From positions 18,372-82,371 of the forward strand of contig CAMBQF010000001.1 in assembly GCA_945869825.1 (NCBI GenBank): a stretch of 64,000 bases of DNA. Direction: 5' to 3'. The notes below the pieces were generated by a model that searched no databases, was not told where the DNA came from, and worked only from the letters and a program-made list of their open reading frames with translations. Shown here piece after piece: positions 3,357 through 64,000 of this stretch. Numbering within the stretch: position 1 is the stretch's first letter; each line of letters starts with the position of its first letter. The translations under genes and the position numbers were made by a program. This DNA comes from Chitinophaga pinensis. Lineage in GTDB: Bacteria > Bacteroidota > Bacteroidia > CAMBQF01.

Positions 3357-6291
3357 ATTTAAAGCCTATTTGTCCGCGCTGGCGGTAATATTCGGTGCGT
3401 ATGGGCCTTTCTTTTTGTCCACGGTAGGTTAAGTCAGGCCAATCAAGCAGATTCATTAACTCAACATATACTGTGTAATGCTTTTTAAAAGTGTACGAAC
3501 CTCCAAAATCAAGAGAATACATAGGGCCTTTAAAAATATCGAAATCGCTATTGTTGTGTATGTATATCAAGTTGCCATTAAGGTCTTTTACAGTAGCCAG
3601 GTTAAGGTCTTTTAAATAAGCACCGGTATAGTTAAATGCTATGCGGGCCTGTAGGTGGTCGTTTTCATAAAACAAAGCCACATTATACAAAAACGGGGTT
3701 TGCTCTGTCATAGCCTGTTTGTTGCTGCGCCCCGGTGCCTGCATACGCGATAAAGAATAGGTTAGATTAGCATTTAAGCCAAATCCACTTAATATGCCAG
3801 GCAAACCAGTAAATTTCCGCACAAATGCCCCTTCAAAACCATACACGAATGATTGATTTGCATTATCGTAACGTTTGGCTACAATACCAATTTGATCAAC
3901 ATACGATGTAGTGATGGCAAATATATGGTTTACAACATATTTATAGTAGCCCCCAACAGAAAACATGCCCTTGTTGCCCCAAAAATACTCATACGTTAAA
4001 TCAAAGTTGTATGAATAGGCCGGCTTAAGCCTGGAGTTTCCATAAGTAAGGTCAAGGTCGTCTATACAATAAGCGCCGGAGCCGGGTTTGGTTTCGGCAA
4101 AATTGGGCCTGTGCATGGTGCGAGAAAATGCACTGCGCAGGTTCATCTTGTCATTAATAGTCCATGTTGCGTTTATTGATGGAAGCACAGACAGGTATTT
4201 AAGGCTGGTGCGGCGTTGTTCAGGCACGTAGTAATAATTGCCTGTGGGCTGGTCAAATGCCAGTGAATCTAAAAGGGTGTCTGAAAGTTCTTGCAGATTG
4301 GTATATTCAAGGCGGGCGCCTGCTACCAGCTGTATCTTACCCAGCTTAACATCGGCCATGCCATAACCGGCATATACCCCTTCGGTATACGTATAGCGGT
4401 TGCCTGCCCAAAACCTGTATTCTGTATTTACAGGGTTCATTTCGTATGGCTTTAGTGTGTCGCCAAGGTTAGGCACAAAATTCAATAATTGGTCTTGGGG
4501 CAAAAACGGGAAAAAGCTGCCTGCATAAGGGCTGCCCAGCTCTCTTAAAAAGCCACCCCGCTCGTCTAATTGTACTGTATTAAAATCGGTAAGCAGGTAA
4601 GGTTGTGGTCGCAGTGGCACGTTTTGCCTCCACTCGTATAAACTTACAAGCCTGGCACCCTCTTTATAGCGGCCTTTAAAACCAAATTGTAGTTTTACAT
4701 CGTTATTTATAACATAATTAAGGTCTACCCGGGCAACAACAGGGTCTCGTTCCCAGGTATCGTTCAACTCTGACCATGAACGGTAAAACTCAAAATCGCC
4801 AGGCTGCAAAGGGTCTGTGCTTTGTGGGTTTATGGGTTGGGGTTGTATGTTGTTATAATCATCACCAGTACCATAGGGATTATCTACCCCTAATAATTTT
4901 GTAACAATTGGCGCAACAGTATTTGGCCCCACAGGGTCGCCATTAAATTCTACAGAATCAACATCTTTATAATACAACAGCGGGCTCATAAACTCTGTAA
5001 AAAAGTACCCGTTTCGGGGGTCTTTATTTTTAAACGGGCGGTTGCCATACCTAAAGCTGTTATGGTACGTAGCCACTTTGGCTGTTACGGTAATTTTGTC
5101 ATTGATTTTAAATTCGCCGTGTACATCGCCACCAAAAAGCTGGCGTATTAACATACCGCTTATGCTTTGCAGCCTTAACCTTGCGCCCGACCCATCGCTA
5201 TAATTAAAACGGGTTTTATATTGGTTTTTATCATCGCTTAAGCGGCCATAAAAAAAGCGGCCACCAATGGTTACTTTGTCGTTAGGCTTATACTCAAATG
5301 CTGCATTGGCACCAATGGTATTGCGCATACCCGAGTAGTCTTTAAGTTCGTAACTGGCAATGCCCTGGTTAAAATTGCTGGCATAAACTACCTTGTATGC
5401 CTGTGCCCCGTAGTAGCGCCCGTAGTACGAACCATCAAGCACATAAGAGAATTTTTTGTTTTTAGATACGTTGCCATACGTAACAGCTGCATTCATTAAA
5501 GGCTTTCCGGCCAGGGTGTTATAACCGCCCCCTATGTTTACTTTAAATGTCTTCTTCTCAACATTAGAGCGGGTTAAAAAATTAATAATCCCGCCAATAT
5601 TATCCGACTCCTGGTCGGGTGTTACTGTGCGCGCAACAACAATATAATCAATAAAATCAGAGGGTAACACTTCAAAATCAAAAGCACGGCTGGCATTTTC
5701 TTCGTCAGATGTTGGCAGCCTGTCGCCGTTTACCAATGTCGCTGTCCAATCTATAGGCGTACCCCTTAATGATACCAGGCTTCCCTCGCCTTTGTCGTTT
5801 TGTACAGATGTTCCTGCAATCCGTTTTACAGCTTCGGCGGCTGTTTTAGAGGGCAATTTAGCTATAGCCTCTGACGACATTACTGATACAACATGCGAAG
5901 ATGTTTTAACCATATTGATGGCCTTATCTTCGCTGCCAATTTTGTAGCTACCCGTTACCGATACTTCTTTTAGCGTTTTAGCATCGGGTTCTAGTTCAAT
6001 GTCGTGCAACTGGGTTGTTGTACCAGCTGTAATAACCACCTCTTTTTGCAAAGGTTTAAAGCCAAGGTAGGTTACTTTTATTATTTGCTTGCCTACAGGT
6101 ATATTGAATAATTGAAATGTACCATCAAAAGCTGTTGTAGTACCTAGCTTTGTAGCTTCAATTATTACTATAGCGCCCGGCAACGATTCTCCTTTACTAA
6201 TCAGCCTGCCAGATAGCGTGCCAGTTTGTGCAGACAATACAACAATACAAAAAGAAAATAGAAATAATATAGTGTACTTAACTTTCGCCAC
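3346..6291 (-). CDS. TonB-dependent outer-membrane receptor (carboxypeptidase-regulatory-like N-domain + plug + beta-barrel)
   Basis: 981 aa, signal peptide, N-terminal CarbopepD_reg-like (SGRLISKGESLPGAIV), plug-like region, C-terminal aromatic terminus (KFDF). Confidence 0.8.
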   Translation of the reverse strand: MAKVKYTILFLFSFCIVVLSAQTGTLSGRLISKGESLPGAIVIIEATKLGTTTAFDGTFQLFNIPVGKQIIKVTYLGFKPLQKEVVITAGTTTQLHDIELEPDAKTLKEVSVTGSYKIGSEDKAINMVKTSSHVVSVMSSEAIAKLPSKTAAEAVKRIAGTSVQNDKGEGSLVSLRGTPIDWTATLVNGDRLPTSDEENASRAFDFEVLPSDFIDYIVVARTVTPDQESDNIGGIINFLTRSNVEKKTFKVNIGGGYNTLAGKPLMNAAVTYGNVSKNKKFSYVLDGSYYGRYYGAQAYKVVYASNFNQGIASYELKDYSGMRNTIGANAAFEYKPNDKVTIGGRFFYGRLSDDKNQYKTRFNYSDGSGARLRLQSISGMLIRQLFGGDVHGEFKINDKITVTAKVATYHNSFRYGNRPFKNKDPRNGYFFTEFMSPLLYYKDVDSVEFNGDPVGPNTVAPIVTKLLGVDNPYGTGDDYNNIQPQPINPQSTDPLQPGDFEFYRSWSELNDTWERDPVVARVDLNYVINNDVKLQFGFKGRYKEGARLVSLYEWRQNVPLRPQPYLLTDFNTVQLDERGGFLRELGSPYAGSFFPFLPQDQLLNFVPNLGDTLKPYEMNPVNTEYRFWAGNRYTYTEGVYAGYGMADVKLGKIQLVAGARLEYTNLQELSDTLLDSLAFDQPTGNYYYVPEQRRTSLKYLSVLPSINATWTINDKMNLRSAFSRTMHRPNFAETKPGSGAYCIDDLDLTYGNSRLKPAYSYNFDLTYEYFWGNKGMFSVGGYYKYVVNHIFAITTSYVDQIGIVAKRYDNANQSFVYGFEGAFVRKFTGLPGILSGFGLNANLTYSLSRMQAPGRSNKQAMTEQTPFLYNVALFYENDHLQARIAFNYTGAYLKDLNLATVKDLNGNLIYIHNNSDFDIFKGPMYSLDFGGSYTFKKHYTVYVELMNLLDWPDLTYRGQKERPIRTEYYRQRGQIGFKFDF

Positions 6292-11808: not shown

Positions 11809-13659
11809 TTGCACCAATTTGACAGAAAACCCGCTATGAATGCTATGTATAAGCCAAAATTTAATAAATTAGCACAAGAAAATGCCCGGGACCGTTTGAT
11901 GATTGAATACAATGAGGTGATTGATAAACTGCCTCCACATTTAAAGCAGTTTATTGTGGATCAGGATTATAGCCACTATACGCCAATTGACCAGGCGGTA
12001 TGGCGATATGTTATGCGCCAAAATTACTGCTACCTAAGCAAGGTTGCCCACGGCAGCTATGTAGAGGGCCTTCAAAAAACAGGTATTGGTATCGACCACA
12101 TCTCTCAAATGTATGGCATGAACCGCATTCTAAAAGAGATTGGTTGGGCGGCTGTTGCGGTTGACGGGTTTATTCCCCCATCGGCATTTATGGAATTTCA
12201 GGCGTATAAAATTTTGGTAATAGCGGCCGACATAAGGCAGCTGGAACATATACAATACACCCCGGCGCCTGATATTATTCACGAAGCAGCAGGCCATGCC
12301 CCCATTATTGCCGACCCTGAATATGCTGAGTACCTGCGCCTGTTTGGCGAGATTGGCAGCAAGGCATTTTCATCGGCCCAGGATTATGATTTGTACGAGG
12401 CAGTCAGGCATCTTTCTATTATAAAAGAATTCCCTAATGCTACAGCAGAAGAGATTGCTGAGGCTGAACAACGGTTGGAACAGGTATCGGCCAATATGGG
12501 CGAGCCCAGCGAAATGGCGCGTATACGCAACCTGCACTGGTGGACTGTTGAGTATGGTTTGATAGGCAAGCCCGAAGATTGTAAAATTTATGGTGCAGGC
12601 TTATTATCATCTATTGGCGAGAGTGTAAGCTGTATGCAACCCGATGTGAAGAAGATACCTTACACCATAGCAGCAGCAGATACCAGCTTTGATATTACCA
12701 AGCAACAACCCCAATTGTTTGTTACCCCATCGTTTAAACAACTGGTAGAGGTGCTGGAAGATTTTGCTGAAAGCCTTGCCCTGCGCCGTGGTGGTTTGTA
12801 TGGGCTGGAAGTGGCTATAAAATCGAAGAATGTAGGCACGGCAGTATATAGCTCGGGCTTGCAGGTGAGCGGGGTATTTGACGAAGCGATTACCGATAAA
12901 AACAACAACCTGATTTATATACATACCACAGGGCCTACATCATTAGCCTATAAAAATAAAGAGCTTGACGGGCATGGTAAAGTTTACCATGCAGAGGGTT
13001 TTGGGTCGCCGGTAGGAAAGCTAAAAGGCACCAACAAGCCTCTGGAACAACTTACCGAAGTAGAACTGGTGATGATGGGGATTGTAAACGGTTTGCCCTG
13101 CCACCTTGAGTTTGAAAGTGGTGTTGTAGTAGATGGTGTTTTGAGGGAAAAGGAGCAGGTATCGGGCGGAAAAAGCCTGATTTTTGTGTTTGATGATTGC
13201 ACCGTAACTTATGGCGACCGACTTTTGTACGACCCTGACTGGGGCACGTATGATATGGCTGTGGGCGAGAGTATAGTGTCTGTATTTAGTGGTGCTGCAG
13301 ATGTTGAGGCATACAAGCCTACATCGAGGGTGCCGCACGAGTTGACCAAGAAAATTGTATACACCCCTGAACAATTGCGCTTGCAAAAATTATATGGCCA
13401 AGTGCGGGAGATACGCGATACCAAAGGCGACTACAACGCATTGCCAGGAGTATTCAGCATATTAAAAACTGATTTTACCAATGACTGGCTGCTGTGTGTA
13501 GAGTTGTATGAGATATTGAAGGACAGCAACCTATACCCCAACCAAACAGCAGAAATAAAGGCTTATTTAGAGGAGATGAAAACCCGTAAGCCAGAATATA
13601 AAAAGCTTATTGAAGACGGTATACGTCTTACTGATGAGCTTGAACTTACCCACTCGTAA
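11809..13659 (+). CDS. biopterin-dependent aromatic amino acid hydroxylase family protein (phenylalanine-4-monooxygenase-like) with ~270-aa C-terminal extension
   Basis: YTPAPDIIHEAAGHAPIIADPEYAEY and YGAGLLSSIGE match the iron-binding motifs of PAH/TH/TPH catalytic domains (PEPDxxHELLGHVPLL...FGAGLLSS); total 616 aa is about twice a bacterial PhhA. Confidence 0.6.
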   Translation: MHQFDRKPAMNAMYKPKFNKLAQENARDRLMIEYNEVIDKLPPHLKQFIVDQDYSHYTPIDQAVWRYVMRQNYCYLSKVAHGSYVEGLQKTGIGIDHISQMYGMNRILKEIGWAAVAVDGFIPPSAFMEFQAYKILVIAADIRQLEHIQYTPAPDIIHEAAGHAPIIADPEYAEYLRLFGEIGSKAFSSAQDYDLYEAVRHLSIIKEFPNATAEEIAEAEQRLEQVSANMGEPSEMARIRNLHWWTVEYGLIGKPEDCKIYGAGLLSSIGESVSCMQPDVKKIPYTIAAADTSFDITKQQPQLFVTPSFKQLVEVLEDFAESLALRRGGLYGLEVAIKSKNVGTAVYSSGLQVSGVFDEAITDKNNNLIYIHTTGPTSLAYKNKELDGHGKVYHAEGFGSPVGKLKGTNKPLEQLTEVELVMMGIVNGLPCHLEFESGVVVDGVLREKEQVSGGKSLIFVFDDCTVTYGDRLLYDPDWGTYDMAVGESIVSVFSGAADVEAYKPTSRVPHELTKKIVYTPEQLRLQKLYGQVREIRDTKGDYNALPGVFSILKTDFTNDWLLCVELYEILKDSNLYPNQTAEIKAYLEEMKTRKPEYKKLIEDGIRLTDELELTHS

Positions 13660-15610: not shown

Positions 15611-15696
15611 GAAGCGCTTACGCACATTCTGTGCGTGTAGTCCTTAGTCCGTATACTACGGATATTCCTGTATTAAGGCAACAAATACAGGCTATC

Positions 15697-17877
15697 ATGA
15701 AAAATCAATTCAAAATTCAGAATGCAAAATGCATAATTGTGCTTGCAATGGCTATTTCAAACTTTGCTATTGCGCAAACGCCGATGAGTAAAACAATCAG
15801 CGACTCGGTAATAGTAGCGGCTACGCGTACCGATGGTAAACAGGGTGTGGCCTATACCCAGGTGAGTAAAGAGGATTTGAAGAAGCAAAACCTTGGGCAG
15901 GATATTCCGGTATTGCTAAACCTAACCCCATCGGTGGTGGTAAGCTCTGATGCAGGTAATGGCGTTGGCTACACAGGCATACGCATACGCGGCAGCGATG
16001 CTACCCGTATAAATGTTACCGTAAATGGTATACCTATGAACGATGCCGAAAGCCATGGTTTGTTTTGGGTTAACATGCCCGATCTTGCATCATCAGTAAA
16101 CTCTATACAAATACAACGCGGGGCGGGCACCTCTACCAATGGGGCGGGGGCTTTTGGTGCCAGTATAAACATACAAAGCAATGTGCTGAATGCAGAACCG
16201 TATGCAGAGGTTAACTCATCGGCCGGGTCGTTCAACACGTTTAAAAATACGGTAATGGTGGGCTCGGGACTTGTTGGTGGCAAATTTACTTTTGATGCAA
16301 GGCTTTCTAAAATAACATCAGACGGGTTTGTAGACCGTGCCGCATCAGACTTAAAATCATTCTTTGTATCAGGAGGATATTATGGCACAAAGACGATTAT
16401 AAGGGCTAATGTGTTTTCGGGCAAAGAACGTACGTACCAGTCGTGGTATGGCATACCCGAAGCGGCGTTGGATACCAACCGCACCTACAACTACTACACC
16501 TATGCCAACCAAACCGATAACTACCAGCAAGACCATTACCAGCTTATTGGCTCGCACAGTATGAACAACAACTGGAACCTCAACCTGGCGCTGCACTATA
16601 CCCGGGGCAAAGGCTATTATGAAGAGTACAGAGGGCAGGATGATTTTGCCAACTACGGCTTGCCCAATTTTCAACTTTCGCAAGATACCATTCCGCCTAT
16701 AACTGTAAGCACAACAGACCTTGTGCGCCAACGCTGGTTAGATAACCATTTTTACGGGCTTACCTACTCTGTAAACTACAAAAGCTACAACCGCTTAAGC
16801 TTTATTTTAGGCGGGGGAGCAAACCAATACCGTGGAGCCCATTATGGCAATATTATCTGGATGCAATATGCCGGCAGCATTCCTAAAGATTACCGTTATT
16901 ATGATAACGATGCAGTTAAAACTGACATTAATGTATATGGCAAAGCCAACTACCATTTTGGCGCGGGCATTAATGCTTTTATCGATTTACAATACCGCCA
17001 CGTAGGCTACTCATTTTTAGGGTTTGATAATAACCTGCAAAATGTGCAGCAAGATGTAAACCTTAACTTTTTTAATCCTAAGGCAGGCATTAACGTGGAG
17101 CTGCCAAGCGATCAGCAGTTATACCTATCAGCAAGCGTAGCGCACCGCGAACCCACGCGCGATGATTTTACCCAAAGCACACCTGCCAGCAGGCCTAAGG
17201 CAGAGCGGATGATAGATACCGAACTGGGTTATAAAAAGCATTGGAAAAACACTATGGTTGGAGCAAACGGTTATTTTATGTATTACCAAAACCAGCTGGT
17301 ATTAACAGGGAGAATTAATGATGTTGGCGCATATATACGCAGCAACATAGACCAAAGCTACCGCGCTGGTATAGAGCTGGAGGGAGCTGTAAACATTGGC
17401 AAAAAAGTGAAGCTTGCAGGTAACTTTACCTTTAGTCAGAACAAGGTGATAGACTTTGCCGAATATATTGACGATTACGACAATGGTGGGCAGGTGGTTA
17501 ACCGTTACAAAAGTACCGATATATCATTCTCGCCAAACATGGTGGGGGCGGCAACCCTTAGCTACGAGCCTGTAAAAAAGCTTGTATTTAGTTTGATTAA
17601 TAAATATGTTAGTCGCCAATACCTTGATAATACGAGCAACAAGGCACGGTCATTAAACCCTTATACCACGCAAGACTTACGCATAAATTACAACTTTAGC
17701 GCAGGTTCAGCAAAAGACATTTCGCTAATATTATCAGTAAACAACCTGCTGAATGCTAAATATGAGCCTAATGGCTATACGTTTAGCTATATATATGGAG
17801 GGCAACAAACCACAGAAAACTACTACTACCCGCAAGCGGGCATAAACGTAATGGGTGGCATAGGCGTAAGGTTTTAG
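15697..17877 (+). CDS. TonB-dependent outer-membrane receptor (riboswitch-controlled; probable thiamine/precursor uptake)
   Basis: Preferred start MKNQFKIQNAKCIIVLAMAISNFAIAQ (signal peptide); plug-like N-terminal region, beta-barrel, C-terminal GIGVRF. Confidence 0.8.
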   Translation: MKNQFKIQNAKCIIVLAMAISNFAIAQTPMSKTISDSVIVAATRTDGKQGVAYTQVSKEDLKKQNLGQDIPVLLNLTPSVVVSSDAGNGVGYTGIRIRGSDATRINVTVNGIPMNDAESHGLFWVNMPDLASSVNSIQIQRGAGTSTNGAGAFGASINIQSNVLNAEPYAEVNSSAGSFNTFKNTVMVGSGLVGGKFTFDARLSKITSDGFVDRAASDLKSFFVSGGYYGTKTIIRANVFSGKERTYQSWYGIPEAALDTNRTYNYYTYANQTDNYQQDHYQLIGSHSMNNNWNLNLALHYTRGKGYYEEYRGQDDFANYGLPNFQLSQDTIPPITVSTTDLVRQRWLDNHFYGLTYSVNYKSYNRLSFILGGGANQYRGAHYGNIIWMQYAGSIPKDYRYYDNDAVKTDINVYGKANYHFGAGINAFIDLQYRHVGYSFLGFDNNLQNVQQDVNLNFFNPKAGINVELPSDQQLYLSASVAHREPTRDDFTQSTPASRPKAERMIDTELGYKKHWKNTMVGANGYFMYYQNQLVLTGRINDVGAYIRSNIDQSYRAGIELEGAVNIGKKVKLAGNFTFSQNKVIDFAEYIDDYDNGGQVVNRYKSTDISFSPNMVGAATLSYEPVKKLVFSLINKYVSRQYLDNTSNKARSLNPYTTQDLRINYNFSAGSAKDISLILSVNNLLNAKYEPNGYTFSYIYGGQQTTENYYYPQAGINVMGGIGVRF

Positions 17878-31508: not shown

Positions 31509-31592
31509 TATTACTAAGAACAAGAAAAAAACGGGGTGGTATATTTAATAATATGTCACCCTTTTTTATTGCTTTAACCTAAAAGGCATTCC

Positions 31593-33602
31593 ATGAAAAT
31601 ATCAGCAAAAAATCCAGCCTTGCCATTTGATTTTATTTTTATAGGATTAGGTGCTGCAAATTGCTTGTTGCTTTTAAGGCTGCATGATAATGGCTTGCTT
31701 ACAGGTAAAACCATTGCTATTGTTGAACCGGATAGTAAATCAGCTAATGATAGGACTTTTTGTTTTTGGGCTACAGAAGATGATGTAACAAACTTACATG
31801 TAAAACCTTTGGTTAGCAACAGTTGGGACTTTGTAGAAATTGGTGGTATTGCCAAGCAACAAATTAATCCACTGCGCTATTTTCATGTAAAAGGTATCGA
31901 TATTTATAACCAAACAAAAAGTATTCTTAGTGTTAATAATGTTACATTTTTTAACACTCTTTTTAAAGAAAACCCGGAAGTAAAATCAACGTATTATGAA
32001 GTTAGACTGGCTAACGAAACACTTTATGGTTATAAAGTATTTGATAGTCGCCCGCCAATTTTTTTGCCCCCGAAAAAAAACCAAAGCCATTTATACCAAT
32101 CTTTTTATGGCTTAAAAATAAAACTCGCTACAAAAACATTTGATACTTCAGTAATGGTAATGATGGATTTTAACGTCCCTCAAAACAATTTCACACAGTT
32201 TGTTTATGTGTTGCCTTTTTCTGAAGATACGGCATTAATAGAGTTAACACGCTTTGGTACTGAAAAATTGACACAACAGGAAGCTACGCCAATTCTTAAT
32301 GAATACATAGATAGACTGGGAGTTTCTTTTGATATTTTAGAGGAAGAAAGAGGGGTAATACCTATGTCATCATCCGCTTTAAAAAGTGAAGATTTTGGCA
32401 CAAATTGGATAAACATGGGGGCTAGGGCAAATATGATTAAATGCTCTACAGGATATGCTTTTCATGCAATGGCAGAAGATGCCATAACGCAAATGGAAGC
32501 CATTAAAAATAATGTGTTTCCAAAAAGAAAAATGAAAGGGCAAAGGTTTGCTTTTTACGACCGGTTGCTATTAAAAATATTAGATGAAAGTCCTGAGTAC
32601 GGCAAAGTAATTTTTGAAACACTATTTAAAAAAGTACCTATTGTAAAAGTGTTACGTTTTTTAGGAGAGAAAACAAGCCTATCAGAAGAAATTATAATTT
32701 TTTCAAAATTGCCCAAGCGTATATTTATTACAAGCGCTGCAAAAGATATTTTGCAACAGTTTTATACTTTACCTGTGTTAGCGTTGCCTTTTCTGTTCAC
32801 TATTATTACCCTCTTTCTAACGCTTGTCAATCTTCAATATATTTCTTGGGGCATTTTAGGCTTGGGGTTTTTATCGGTTGGCCTGTCTCATGGCGCATTA
32901 GACCACCTAACAGCAAAACCAATCATCAATAAAAAACAACTACTAGGTTTTATTATACGGTATTTGTTTAAGGCCATTGTTTTAGGCCTGGTTTGGTTAT
33001 TTTACCCTGACTTGGCGCTACTTCTATTTATAGCTTACTCTGCCTGGCATTTTGGCCAAGCCGATTTTAAAGAATGGCAATTAAAACAAGGGTGGCAATC
33101 TTTATGCTGGGGCACTATTGCTTTAATGATTATTTTATTCTCTCATTTTGAAGAATTAAATTTAATTCTTTTACAAATACCCAATTTAGAATTTGTAAAC
33201 ACGTTAAAGAATCTTTCTGATAATATAATATGGGCTTTGAATATCCTTTTTATTGTAGGAGGAATTTTATTAGCTGTAATAAATAAATCAAAGCACATAC
33301 TTTTTACTTTAACATATTTATTGCTCTGTAGTATGTTGCCTTTACTTCTTTCATTTGGTATCTATTTTGTTGGCCAACACAGTTTACATGGTTGGCGTCA
33401 TCTTTCTTTAGGTTTGAATGAATCTTCATCACGATTATGGCTAAAGTCTCTCCCTTTTAGTATTGGGGGCGCATTGGTTATTTTATATTTTTTGCTTCTC
33501 TCAAGCTCAAATTATGTAGGTATTTTTTTTATCATTTTATCTTGTTTAAGCATACCCCATGTCTTTAGTATGCATCATTTTTATTCTAAGTTAAAACTAT
33601 AA
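31593..33602 (+). CDS. fusion protein: lycopene beta-cyclase (CrtY-type, FAD) N-terminal domain + Brp/Blh beta-carotene 15,15'-dioxygenase C-terminal membrane domain
   Basis: N-term FIGLGAANCLLLLRL dinucleotide fold and ~380 aa CrtY-like region; C-term polytopic region with Blh His motifs (GLSHGALDHL, WHFGQADF, GQHSLHGWRH, LSIPHVFSMHH). Confidence 0.7.
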   Translation: MKISAKNPALPFDFIFIGLGAANCLLLLRLHDNGLLTGKTIAIVEPDSKSANDRTFCFWATEDDVTNLHVKPLVSNSWDFVEIGGIAKQQINPLRYFHVKGIDIYNQTKSILSVNNVTFFNTLFKENPEVKSTYYEVRLANETLYGYKVFDSRPPIFLPPKKNQSHLYQSFYGLKIKLATKTFDTSVMVMMDFNVPQNNFTQFVYVLPFSEDTALIELTRFGTEKLTQQEATPILNEYIDRLGVSFDILEEERGVIPMSSSALKSEDFGTNWINMGARANMIKCSTGYAFHAMAEDAITQMEAIKNNVFPKRKMKGQRFAFYDRLLLKILDESPEYGKVIFETLFKKVPIVKVLRFLGEKTSLSEEIIIFSKLPKRIFITSAAKDILQQFYTLPVLALPFLFTIITLFLTLVNLQYISWGILGLGFLSVGLSHGALDHLTAKPIINKKQLLGFIIRYLFKAIVLGLVWLFYPDLALLLFIAYSAWHFGQADFKEWQLKQGWQSLCWGTIALMIILFSHFEELNLILLQIPNLEFVNTLKNLSDNIIWALNILFIVGGILLAVINKSKHILFTLTYLLLCSMLPLLLSFGIYFVGQHSLHGWRHLSLGLNESSSRLWLKSLPFSIGGALVILYFLLLSSSNYVGIFFIILSCLSIPHVFSMHHFYSKLKL

Positions 33603-34034
33603 TTGGCCAAGATAATTTTATATAACCGTTTTGTGGTTAAAGCATTGCCTTAATACACCCCGTGTATTTGTATTAAAAATGTTGGACTAAAAATGTGTAT
33701 ATTGCTTGTAACAATGGTAGTTTTAGCCATAGAGCTGTATATGTCTTTTTATTCTTTTACTTTTATTAGTAAACAGCCCCGATTTTTTAATTTTAAAAGA
33801 GTAGAATTGGCGGTGAATTCGGTAGACATTTTAAAACGAGTACTTTATCTTACAGCCACATGGGTTTTGACATAATTCAATGTAAGATTACCAAAAAACC
33901 GATAAATGAGGTTTTACCCACAATAAAACTTTATTTCCAACGTTAGCAGGCATTACAGCGCGCCCGCTTGACAAAGGGGGTATGGATGTTGTATATTCGC
34001 ACTCTTTTAATTTTTACTTATACTCAGATACTTA

Positions 34035-61974: not shown

Positions 61975-64000
61975 CTATTTTGGGTATTCTATCCTTGCGT
62001 GGTACATATTGCCCAGCATCTTTTTAAATATTTTGCGGGCGGTATCAATATCTTTTAGGGTAATGTCGCTCTCGTTAAACTGCTCGTCTTCAATCATCCG
62101 GTGTATAATGGAATCAACCAGGTTGTTTAACGATTCAGGGTCTTTAGACTTTAAGCTGCGCGAAGCCGCCTCTACCGAATCGGCCATCATAAGTACGGCG
62201 GTTTCTTTACTAAACGGCTTTGGGCCGGGGTAAGAGAACAGTTCTAAATCGACAGCACGATCAGGAAATTTTTTTATGTACGAGTTGTAGAAATACTGTA
62301 CCCGCGTGGTGCCGTGGTGGGTTTCTATAAAGTCGATAATTTGCTGGGGCAGCCTGTTGCGACTGGCAATTTCTACCCCCCGGGCTACATGGTTTACAAT
62401 AATATGGGCGCTTTGGTCAAACTCAATACTATCGTGTGGGTTTACGCCTTCTACCTGGTTCTCTATAAAGTACAGCGGCATCTCCATTTTACCAATATCG
62501 TGGTACAGTGCCCCAGTGCGCACCAGCATAGAGTTGCCACCAATTTTATCTACCGCAGCCTCGGCCAGGTTGGCAACCTGCAACGAGTGTTGGAAGGTAC
62601 CCGGGGCTTTTAGCGCCAGTTCTTTTAATAGCGGGCTATTGGTGTCGGCCAGTTCCAGCAAACGCACATCAGATGTGAAACCAAAAAGTTTCTCGAATAT
62701 GAATATAGACGGGTAGGCAAACAGCACTAACAAGCTGCTGCCAGCAAACCAAACGTAGGGTTTTAAGTAGATGTTGTCAAAGCTACCTTCGTGCAAAATT
62801 TCTATGCCTGTGTAGCCAAGGGCGTACATACCAAATATCATAGCGGCGGCAATAATAAGCTGGCCGCGCTTTTTAAGGCCTACAATGCTAAATAGCGCAA
62901 TAATGCCAGCCGCTAGTTGCAGGAATACAAACTCGAAGCTATTGGGTATGATAAAACCTACCACCAGCACCGTTATAAGGTGTGTATAGAGGGCCACGCG
63001 GGTATCAAAAAACGCCCTTATAATAATGGTAACAATACAGAATGGCACCAGGTAAATGTTCAGTTCATCAAACTGAAGCACTAACCAGCAGGTAAATACC
63101 ATAAGTACAATAATGAAGAAAAGAAACGAAAAGCGGGCATTGTCGCGCACCATCTCTTTACGGAAAAGCCATAAAAACAGCACCAGCAATATAAGGGCCA
63201 TAGATATGACCACGGCTTGCCCAATGCTTACTGCCCAGCTATTGTAATTATCGCCATATTGTTTTTCAGTTTCCAATCGCAGCGACTCCAGCTTCTGGAA
63301 CACCTCATTGTTTACAATATTGCCACGGCGCACAATTACTTCGTCTTTGCTAACAAGCCCCTGTGTTATAGAAATATCATCTTCTAAATCAGCTTTATAG
63401 TCCTGGCTTAGGTCGCTTTCGTAAAAAATATCGGGTTCCAGCTGCTTAGCAATAATGCCAACTACCTCTTGCGGCATATCGGGGTGGCGCCTTAACACCC
63501 AGGCATTTAAAGAGTCTTTTACGGCCTCCATTTTTATAAACGAAGCCAGGGGCCTTTCATCTGCATATTTACCCTCAACAATGGTAATTTCAAAATTGCC
63601 GCGCTTGCCTCTTAAAATGTCATTTTCAGCATAAATGCCGTAGCGGTAAATTTCGTCTATCAGCCTAAGGCCAATGCTCAGGTTTTCGGCTGTGTTAAGC
63701 ACCAGTTTTTCTTTAGAGCGGCGCATAACCATGCCGCTGTCTGCCTGTTCGGCACCCAGTTCTTTTTTAAAGCGGGTTTTAGCTTTATCGTGCACGCCAC
63801 GGCTTATGGTAAAAAAGGGCTTAAAACCCTTACGCACCCCTTCAAACTCATTATCAAGTTCAAGGGTTGATTTGAAGATTGGAAAGCTGAATGGAGCCTT
63901 TAAATCTTCGTATTGCCAGGGTTTGTTTTTTTGATACTCGTACTTAAACTTGCGGCTGTTCGGGAACATCCATACCACCAGCATTACCGTTAGTATAAAC
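61975..64000 (-). CDS. 7TM-receptor HDIG-domain phosphohydrolase (PgpH/YqfF-like), 5' end may extend past window
   Basis: Extracellular N-domain, 7TM block, C-terminal HD domain with LYHDIGKM motif. Confidence 0.7.
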   Translation of the reverse strand, partial: FILTVMLVVWMFPNSRKFKYEYQKNKPWQYEDLKAPFSFPIFKSTLELDNEFEGVRKGFKPFFTISRGVHDKAKTRFKKELGAEQADSGMVMRRSKEKLVLNTAENLSIGLRLIDEIYRYGIYAENDILRGKRGNFEITIVEGKYADERPLASFIKMEAVKDSLNAWVLRRHPDMPQEVVGIIAKQLEPDIFYESDLSQDYKADLEDDISITQGLVSKDEVIVRRGNIVNNEVFQKLESLRLETEKQYGDNYNSWAVSIGQAVVISMALILLVLFLWLFRKEMVRDNARFSFLFFIIVLMVFTCWLVLQFDELNIYLVPFCIVTIIIRAFFDTRVALYTHLITVLVVGFIIPNSFEFVFLQLAAGIIALFSIVGLKKRGQLIIAAAMIFGMYALGYTGIEILHEGSFDNIYLKPYVWFAGSSLLVLFAYPSIFIFEKLFGFTSDVRLLELADTNSPLLKELALKAPGTFQHSLQVANLAEAAVDKIGGNSMLVRTGALYHDIGKMEMPLYFIENQVEGVNPHDSIEFDQSAHIIVNHVARGVEIASRNRLPQQIIDFIETHHGTTRVQYFYNSYIKKFPDRAVDLELFSYPGPKPFSKETAVLMMADSVEAASRSLKSKDPESLNNLVDSIIHRMIEDEQFNESDITLKDIDTARKIFKKMLGNMYHARIEYPK

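Follow-up and report, generated by a model that had tools for sequence, protein, structure and literature searches.

Natural fusions between enzymes of the carotenoid pathway known in 2023 comprised CrtBY, CrtIBY and, newly, CrtIB, with no mention of a CrtY-Blh protein (PMC10284914). Thraustochytrid CrtIBY, fungal CrtYB and verrucomicrobial CrtIB follow the same principle, namely pathway enzymes fused in one polypeptide (PMC10284914), while the closest described analogue of the gene considered here is a four-domain CrtI-CrtB-CrtYc/d-Blh protein from Thecamonas trahens (PMC10016063). Blh enzymes such as that of the uncultured marine bacterium 66A03 (Q4PNI0) and the Halobacterium Brp/Blh proteins are known as free-standing proteins of about 275 amino acids (aa), and the reference for CrtY-type lycopene beta-cyclases used in this study, CrtY of Pantoea agglomerans, originates from the plasmid cluster crtE-idi-crtX-crtY-crtI-crtB-crtZ. 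Herein, we report on a single open reading frame (ORF) within a 64,000-nucleotide stretch of Chitinophaga pinensis DNA (assembly GCA_945869825.1, contig CAMBQF010000001.1; hereafter, the window), in which a CrtY-like cyclase region with a predicted fold typical of flavin adenine dinucleotide (FAD) enzymes is followed by a Brp/Blh beta-carotene 15,15'-dioxygenase region, and which is located directly downstream of a proteorhodopsin gene. We consider it likely, judging from sequence comparison and predicted structure, that this gene is bifunctional, covers the two final reactions on the way to retinal and serves the upstream proteorhodopsin. The T. trahens protein likewise joins consecutive pathway enzymes and carries Blh C-terminally after a cyclase domain; it is, however, eukaryotic, consists of four domains and uses a non-homologous, heterodimer-type CrtYc/d, whereas the present protein is bacterial, has two domains and features a cyclase of the FAD-dependent CrtY type.

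The ORF at 31593..33602 on the plus strand comprises 669 codons with zero internal stops, in agreement with the coordinates and length given in a first-pass annotation of the window, and all motifs quoted there were recovered in the translation (FIGLGAANC at aa 16-24, GLSHGALD at 430-437, WHFGQADF at 485-492, HSLHGWRH at 596-603 and PHVFSMHH at 655-662). Profile searches performed with the whole protein and with each half alone gave the same outcome and supported both halves. For the N-terminal half, PF05834 (Lycopene_cycl) matched aa 13-376 with 157.4 bits (threshold 23.4, E 7e-46) and was covered over model positions 1-373 of 380, consistent with the earlier proposal of a cyclase-like region of about 380 aa. 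The C-terminal half was recognized by PF15461 (BCD) at aa 426-659 with 98.6 bits (threshold 28, E 6e-28) and by TIGR03753 (Brp/Blh) at aa 421-659 with 121.6 bits, above the cut-off of 95.25, and with 124 bits when this half was searched alone, so that a profile-backed Blh domain is present within the C-terminal 290 aa.

Comparison of the N-terminal half with P. agglomerans CrtY revealed that both proteins are collinear and share a series of motifs, which in the present protein read DxxxxGxGxAN (13-23), TFCF (55-58), QSFYG (169-173), MD (191-192), FVYVLP (203-208), LIELT (215-219), EERGVIP (251-257) and TGY (286-288). Residues D13, G18, G20, T55, C57, F58, Q169-S170-F171, G173 and M191-D192 are invariant in the alignment with the Pantoea enzyme, as are F203, Y205, L207-P208, L215, E217, T219, E252, P257 and G287-Y288. 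An AlphaFold2 model, computed on an alignment of 82 fused sequences with a mean predicted local distance difference test (pLDDT) score of 88.9 and a predicted template-modelling (pTM) score of 0.72, places residues 12-372 in an alpha/beta domain. Among solved structures, Foldseek ranks this domain closest to geranylgeranyl reductases and to flavin monooxygenases of group A and halogenases; the top matches also include Tet destructases, UbiI and flavin halogenases, at a probability of 1.00 and E values of about 1e-10. Such a flavoprotein fold is expected for FAD-dependent CrtY-type cyclases. The N-terminal half thus resembles lycopene beta-cyclases of the CrtY type in its full-length PF05834 match, in the motif series DxxxxGxG/TxCF/QSFxG/MD/FxYxLP/LxExT/ExGxxP/TGY and in its predicted fold, and the FAD fold assumed in the first-pass annotation was borne out by the model. 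It differs from the Pantoea enzyme in its genomic setting: while the latter sits in a crtE/B/I/Z cluster, the present gene belongs to a Bacteroidota clade in which the cyclase is fused or adjacent to blh.

The C-terminal half is predicted to be polytopic and all-helical, as was noted from its sequence before; about ten long helices, mostly with pLDDT values above 90, lie between aa 397 and 667 of the AlphaFold2 model, in agreement with the hydropathy peaks. Five histidines (His433, His486, His518, His596 and His656) are invariant in the 82 fusions, and His603 is conserved in at least 90% of them. According to a 2026 preprint on Blh Q4PNI0, His21, His78, His188 and His256 share a plane that surrounds a putative iron, and each of 500 inspected homologues is reported to retain His256. 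The spacing of His433, His486, His596 and His656 (53/110/60) is close to that of these four residues (57/110/68), and, by spacing and motif, we tentatively equate the two sets. The Blh half shares with the enzyme of 66A03 and with Halobacterium Brp/Blh its predicted polytopic all-helical build and histidine spacing, together with a proteorhodopsin neighbour. In contrast to the known free-standing enzymes, its N-terminus is joined to a cyclase domain of 376 aa, and an additional hydrophobic helix, termed TM0, is predicted ahead of the first histidine-bearing Blh helix and upstream of the region matched by the Pfam and TIGR models (from aa 421-426). TM0 is preceded by a basic helix containing KLPKRIFITSAAKD and is followed by about nine further long helices. 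Solved structures related by sequence to either half of the fusion were not found.

Since adjacent and even overlapping split crtY-blh pairs exist among the relatives, the loss of a stop codon or a shift in frame might have merged two such genes in this one assembly, and frameshifted versions do occur in metagenome assemblies. An example is the 672-aa protein P0248, for which we considered a cyclase with an unrelated C-terminal part; it was rejected, as P0248 is the same CrtY-Blh fusion running out of frame after the first histidine motif and ending in an Arg/Pro/His-rich nonsense tail. Database searches speak clearly against such an artefact. All 120 of the 120 hits listed from a protein database clustered at 90% identity carry both Pfam domains; they are 52-100% identical to the window protein, derive from NCBI, JGI, ENA, Logan and Tara, and measure about 660-750 aa, apart from P0090 (428 aa) and P0094 (610 aa), which are partial and shorter. 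An exhaustive search of representatives at 50% identity returned 613 proteins at E <=1e-30. Among the best 150 of these, most match aa 11-666 in one continuous segment, with identities as low as about 30%; this continuous match, with the same domain order and length, recurs in more than 90 clusters of the representative library, and 94 fused sequences in the search results correspond to no fewer than 94 clusters at 50% identity. Partitioning of the retrieved proteins by domain identified 224 of 283 as full-length fusions. A continuous ORF of about 670 aa is thereby present in hundreds of independent assemblies at 30-99% identity.

Scanning a single genome for each GTDB species revealed 60 loci, nearly all in Bacteroidota metagenome-assembled genomes (MAGs) from lakes, ponds and the sea, with Flavobacteriales, Crocinitomicaceae, Vicingaceae, Saprospirales, Cytophagales and Kapaibacteria/Ignavibacteria among the taxa; the few titles naming unrelated taxa belong to short contigs and probably reflect binning or labelling noise. 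The window itself (G+C 43%) encodes type IX secretion system (T9SS) sorting domains and an LpxC-FabZ fusion, and is for this reason assigned to a Bacteroidota genome. In plasmid and phage records no fused homologue was detected, plasmid matches being standalone cyclases of at most 32% identity and phage matches being absent. Across the 82-sequence alignment, the protein of the window is on average 61% identical to its relatives in either half. Conservation is lower (45-47%) in the junction (aa 377-414), where nevertheless zero insertion columns occur between aa 370 and 420 and residues including L373, P374, F378, A382 and T403 are conserved. Because the architecture recurs in independent assemblies and the junction is free of indels, the fusion is not the product of a frameshift, and the merging of two genes in this assembly alone is effectively refuted. 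This settles the frameshift caveat raised in the first-pass annotation, and we conclude from these comparisons that the fusion is genuine and selectively maintained.

The best-scoring standalone relatives of the N-terminal half are proteins of about 390-420 aa with 34-42% identity. In 5 of 7 such contexts (L064, L065, L066, the P0262 contig and L070) a separate blh follows right after the cyclase gene, with an overlap of 1-4 nt or a gap of about 20 bp, and the L066 pair also adjoins a rhodopsin gene; the remaining two cyclases occur without blh, one alone (L063) and one beside a polyprenyl synthase (L069). The earlier view that Blh and CrtY are normally separate genes hence needs revision for this clade, in which the nearest unfused relatives are mostly adjacent and often overlapping pairs. 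These pairs are the closest relatives of both halves and show the same order, cyclase then Blh; they differ from the fusion in encoding two polypeptides, with a stop codon between them and the next start overlapping or at most 20 bp downstream. The cyclase end and Blh start of L066 align with aa 385/386 of the fusion, and in most split pairs and relatives (L065, L066, P0252, P0257) the separate Blh starts with TM0. The break in L064 lies behind TM0 and resembles a secondary fission. Given that crtY and blh mostly sit side by side in the closest unfused relatives, the simplest reading is an end-to-end join, in which a translationally coupled pair would have lost its stop codon. In a neighbour-joining tree of the N-terminal domains, split forms branch between fused ones; the topology is star-like, without bootstrap support, and no firm count of fusion and fission events is drawn from it.

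The rhodopsin encoded directly upstream carries the D-T-E proton-pump triad within RYVDWILTVPLMCVEF; Met occupies the spectral-tuning position (equivalent to 105), and the lysine for retinal lies within ...AINKIGFG. Its best solved relatives are the proteorhodopsins 9jov/9jou (309 bits). The placement after a rhodopsin gene, already pointed out for the window, turned out to be the dominant arrangement among 56 related loci with enough flanking sequence (up to 10 kb). A rhodopsin gene lies directly upstream on the same strand at a gap of 76-229 bp in 37 of them, directly downstream and convergent in five, and farther away in three; the convergent arrangement (subgroup L022, L030-L034) involves a different rhodopsin, about 64% identical to that of the window. 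Rhodopsin and fusion form a two-gene unit amid unrelated housekeeping genes, with rmlD, cyclophilin, pheS and other genes on the opposite strand upstream of the unit and queA and ispD downstream of the fusion. The outer flanks are not conserved, those of L061 and L062 being entirely different from the window's, and crtB, crtI, crtE and crtZ were not seen in the annotated flanks of these two loci. The consistent partners of the cyclase domain are blh and rhodopsin. A functional tie to the downstream ispD, a gene of the methylerythritol phosphate (MEP) pathway, or to queA was considered and rejected, as neither gene occurs within 10 kb of the fusion in the 60 related loci.

Within loci L001-L062, the proteorhodopsins are 84-99% identical where the accompanying fusion enzymes are 37-90% identical, for example in L055 (93% vs 37%), L060 (94% vs 41%) and L042 (94% vs 47%). 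Either the opsin is far more constrained than its partner, or it has been exchanged independently of the partner gene. In L020, only a rhodopsin-like stretch of 39 aa (4593-4709, 54% identity) is found directly upstream of an intact fusion, which may represent a decayed or very divergent opsin.

Between the rhodopsin stop and the fusion start, an intrinsic-terminator-like hairpin spans 31533-31562, and about 22 nt separate its T-run from the ATG. A strong hairpin followed by a T-run was found in most of the rhodopsin-to-fusion spacers of the relatives, the exceptions L001, L027 and L028 being very short extracted spacers. The stems are unrelated among loci, e.g. GGGGTGGTA, GGGATGATAAT, GGGAAGGTAA, AGAAGCCATC and GGGAGACTACC; their occurrence at the same place thus indicates conservation of structure rather than of sequence. 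This arrangement suggests that expression of the enzyme gene would depend on read-through and reach a fraction of that of the opsin. The coordinates of all features of the rhodopsin-fusion unit are compiled in Table 1.

Table 1 Features of the rhodopsin-fusion unit (positions refer to the window)
Feature	Coordinates	Strand	Details
Proteorhodopsin gene, 239 aa	30789..31508	+	PF01036, 145 bits, E 3e-42; directly upstream of the fusion
Intrinsic-terminator-like hairpin GGGGTGGTATATT...AATATGTCACCC, A-tract before, T-run after	31533..31570	+	Terminator scan and sequence
Fusion ORF: CrtY-like cyclase, junction with first predicted membrane helix, Blh	31593..33602	+	ATG start, 669 aa plus stop
N-terminal CrtY-type FAD-fold lycopene cyclase domain	31629..32720	+	aa 13-376, PF05834
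Junction: predicted basic amphipathic helix 375-392, then hydrophobic helix TM0 397-411	32721..32834	+	aa 377-414, AlphaFold2 and hydropathy
C-terminal Brp/Blh beta-carotene 15,15'-dioxygenase domain, predicted polytopic	32835..33599	+	aa 415-669, TIGR03753 and PF15461

Based on these data, we propose that a cytoplasmic N-terminal FAD-type domain, positioned at the membrane surface, would cyclise both ends of membrane-dissolved lycopene to yield beta-carotene, while the short basic helix and the membrane helix would tether the polytopic Blh to this domain. Blh would then cleave beta-carotene at the 15,15' bond with oxygen and a histidine-held iron to give a pair of all-trans-retinal molecules, which may load the proteorhodopsin encoded directly upstream. 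The intrinsic terminator is expected to end most transcripts after the abundant opsin, with read-through yielding less of the enzyme.

Several observations weigh against this proposal. The N-terminal half scores below the NCBIfam cut-offs for lycopene cyclases, reaching 91.9 of 209.5 bits for TIGR01790 and 57.7 of 215.2 bits for TIGR01789 (CrtY), and is just 24% identical to P. agglomerans CrtY. The fifth histidine reported for Blh, His192, has no clear equivalent, as His599 is variable and His603 is conserved at about 90%. Eleven of the 56 loci, mostly those of the more divergent fusions, lack a rhodopsin gene inside the available flank of at most 10 kb, and a Pfam scan that covered most ORFs of >=180 aa in the 64-kb window detected no crtB, crtI, crtE or crtZ. 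As the NCBIfam cut-offs were missed, the N-terminal half is named CrtY-like rather than CrtY; of the original assignment to lycopene beta-cyclase, the full-length family match stands, while the subfamily (TIGR01790) and equivalog (TIGR01789) profiles do not support it. The standalone relatives also remain below the TIGR01790 cut-off (70-119 bits), and the divergence therefore belongs to the clade and not to the fusion.

These scores bear on the main alternative, according to which the fusion is real and its N-terminal domain does something other than bicyclic lycopene beta-cyclisation, acting as a gamma-carotene monocyclase, as another flavin-dependent modifier of carotenoids or retinoids, or as a non-catalytic scaffold delivering the substrate to Blh. 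In the monocyclase variant, cleavage of gamma-carotene would afford one retinal and one acyclic analogue, and a preprint on Blh reports promiscuous cleavage of other carotenoids (bioRxiv 10.64898/2026.08.06.743266). That the N-terminal half together with the whole blh-linked clade falls far under the CrtY and lycopene-cyclase cut-offs, at low identity to an enzyme of the characterised type, would fit this alternative as well. On the other hand, the alignment spans the full Pfam cyclase model, and the motifs common to Pantoea CrtY are all invariant, including GxGxAN and the glutamate of LxExT. A decayed domain is further disfavoured, the N-terminal half being under strong purifying conservation to the same degree as its Blh partner. 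Moreover, proteorhodopsin needs retinal, and retinal requires a beta-ionone ring. On balance, we regard a function other than bicyclisation as unlikely.

The loci without rhodopsin might alternatively point to an enzyme mainly employed in carotenoid or apocarotenoid metabolism, such as signalling or pigment turnover, for which the adjacency to rhodopsin would be incidental; the neighbours in these 11 loci are unrelated housekeeping genes. This appears very improbable, as a rhodopsin gene is immediately adjacent in 42 of the 56 loci and may lie elsewhere in the genomes of the others. In addition, we know of no other function of Brp/Blh-family enzymes. Retinal supply to the neighbouring proteorhodopsin by a bifunctional enzyme remains our favoured assignment.

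Further features of the window were recorded alongside this analysis. In the 432-bp AT-rich non-coding gap between the fusion and queA (33603-34034), ORFs of >=80 aa are absent, and Rfam models gave no match at their gathering thresholds; queA may be served by a sigma-70-like TTGACA-18-TATATT site at 33968-33997. Another ORF with a length of exactly 669 aa (61975..63984, minus strand) encodes a seven-transmembrane receptor with an HD hydrolase domain (7TM-HD); a link to the fusion was considered and rejected, the two proteins being unrelated and their equal length a coincidence. A thiamine pyrophosphate (TPP) riboswitch (RF00059, 15523-15620, plus strand, 66 bits vs a gathering threshold of 54.3) directly precedes an ORF for a TonB-dependent receptor (15631-17877), a position that suggests thiamine-regulated outer-membrane uptake. 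In a 616-aa ORF at 11809-13659 (plus strand), the match to Biopterin_H (aromatic amino acid hydroxylase) is confined to aa 214-323.

With regard to prior knowledge, the first-pass annotation had regarded the architecture as not known to be described. This view holds for the literature insofar as no description of a bacterial CrtY-Blh fusion was found in the full texts covered, which leave out most subscription-journal papers; it does not hold for the databases, which already contain and label a protein that is not rare. NCBI lists WP_457268474.1 as 'Brp/Blh family beta-carotene 15,15'-monooxygenase/lycopene cyclase-like protein', and JGI labels proteins of the family 'lycopene beta-cyclase'. 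The fusion is common in sequence data and adds a bacterial FAD-type CrtY-Blh protein to the few natural fusions of the carotenoid pathway.

Beyond the single gene, it is conceivable, yet on present evidence rather doubtful, that the blh-linked cyclases, fused or split, form a retinal-dedicated lineage apart from the CrtY enzymes of pigment pathways, that rhodopsin and crtY-blh together constitute a minimal two-gene photosystem cassette, that the fusion channels beta-carotene into cleavage, and that parts of the cassette have been repeatedly transferred or recombined. If this were true, the cassette would give phototrophy to any lycopene-making host, even one without a beta-carotene pathway, and beta-carotene would bypass the free carotenoid pool via channelling in the fusion. 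The variable flanks and the disparity between rhodopsin and enzyme identities would then be traces of such repeated transfer or recombination.

The gene may provide a candidate ready-made, single-gene lycopene-to-retinal module for optogenetics or retinoid production, and its natural fused and split counterparts allow direct comparison and tests of channelling. The terminator between the opsin and enzyme genes would be a simple example of how the ratio of a pigment protein to its cofactor enzyme can be set. Surveys of retinal self-sufficiency in rhodopsin-bearing MAGs usually rely on the annotation of a blh gene. The JGI label 'lycopene beta-cyclase' conceals the Blh domain in a large group of Bacteroidota from freshwater and the sea, and the respective genomes could be mis-scored as dependent on outside retinal; recognition of the fusion would correct such calls of MAGs as lacking blh.

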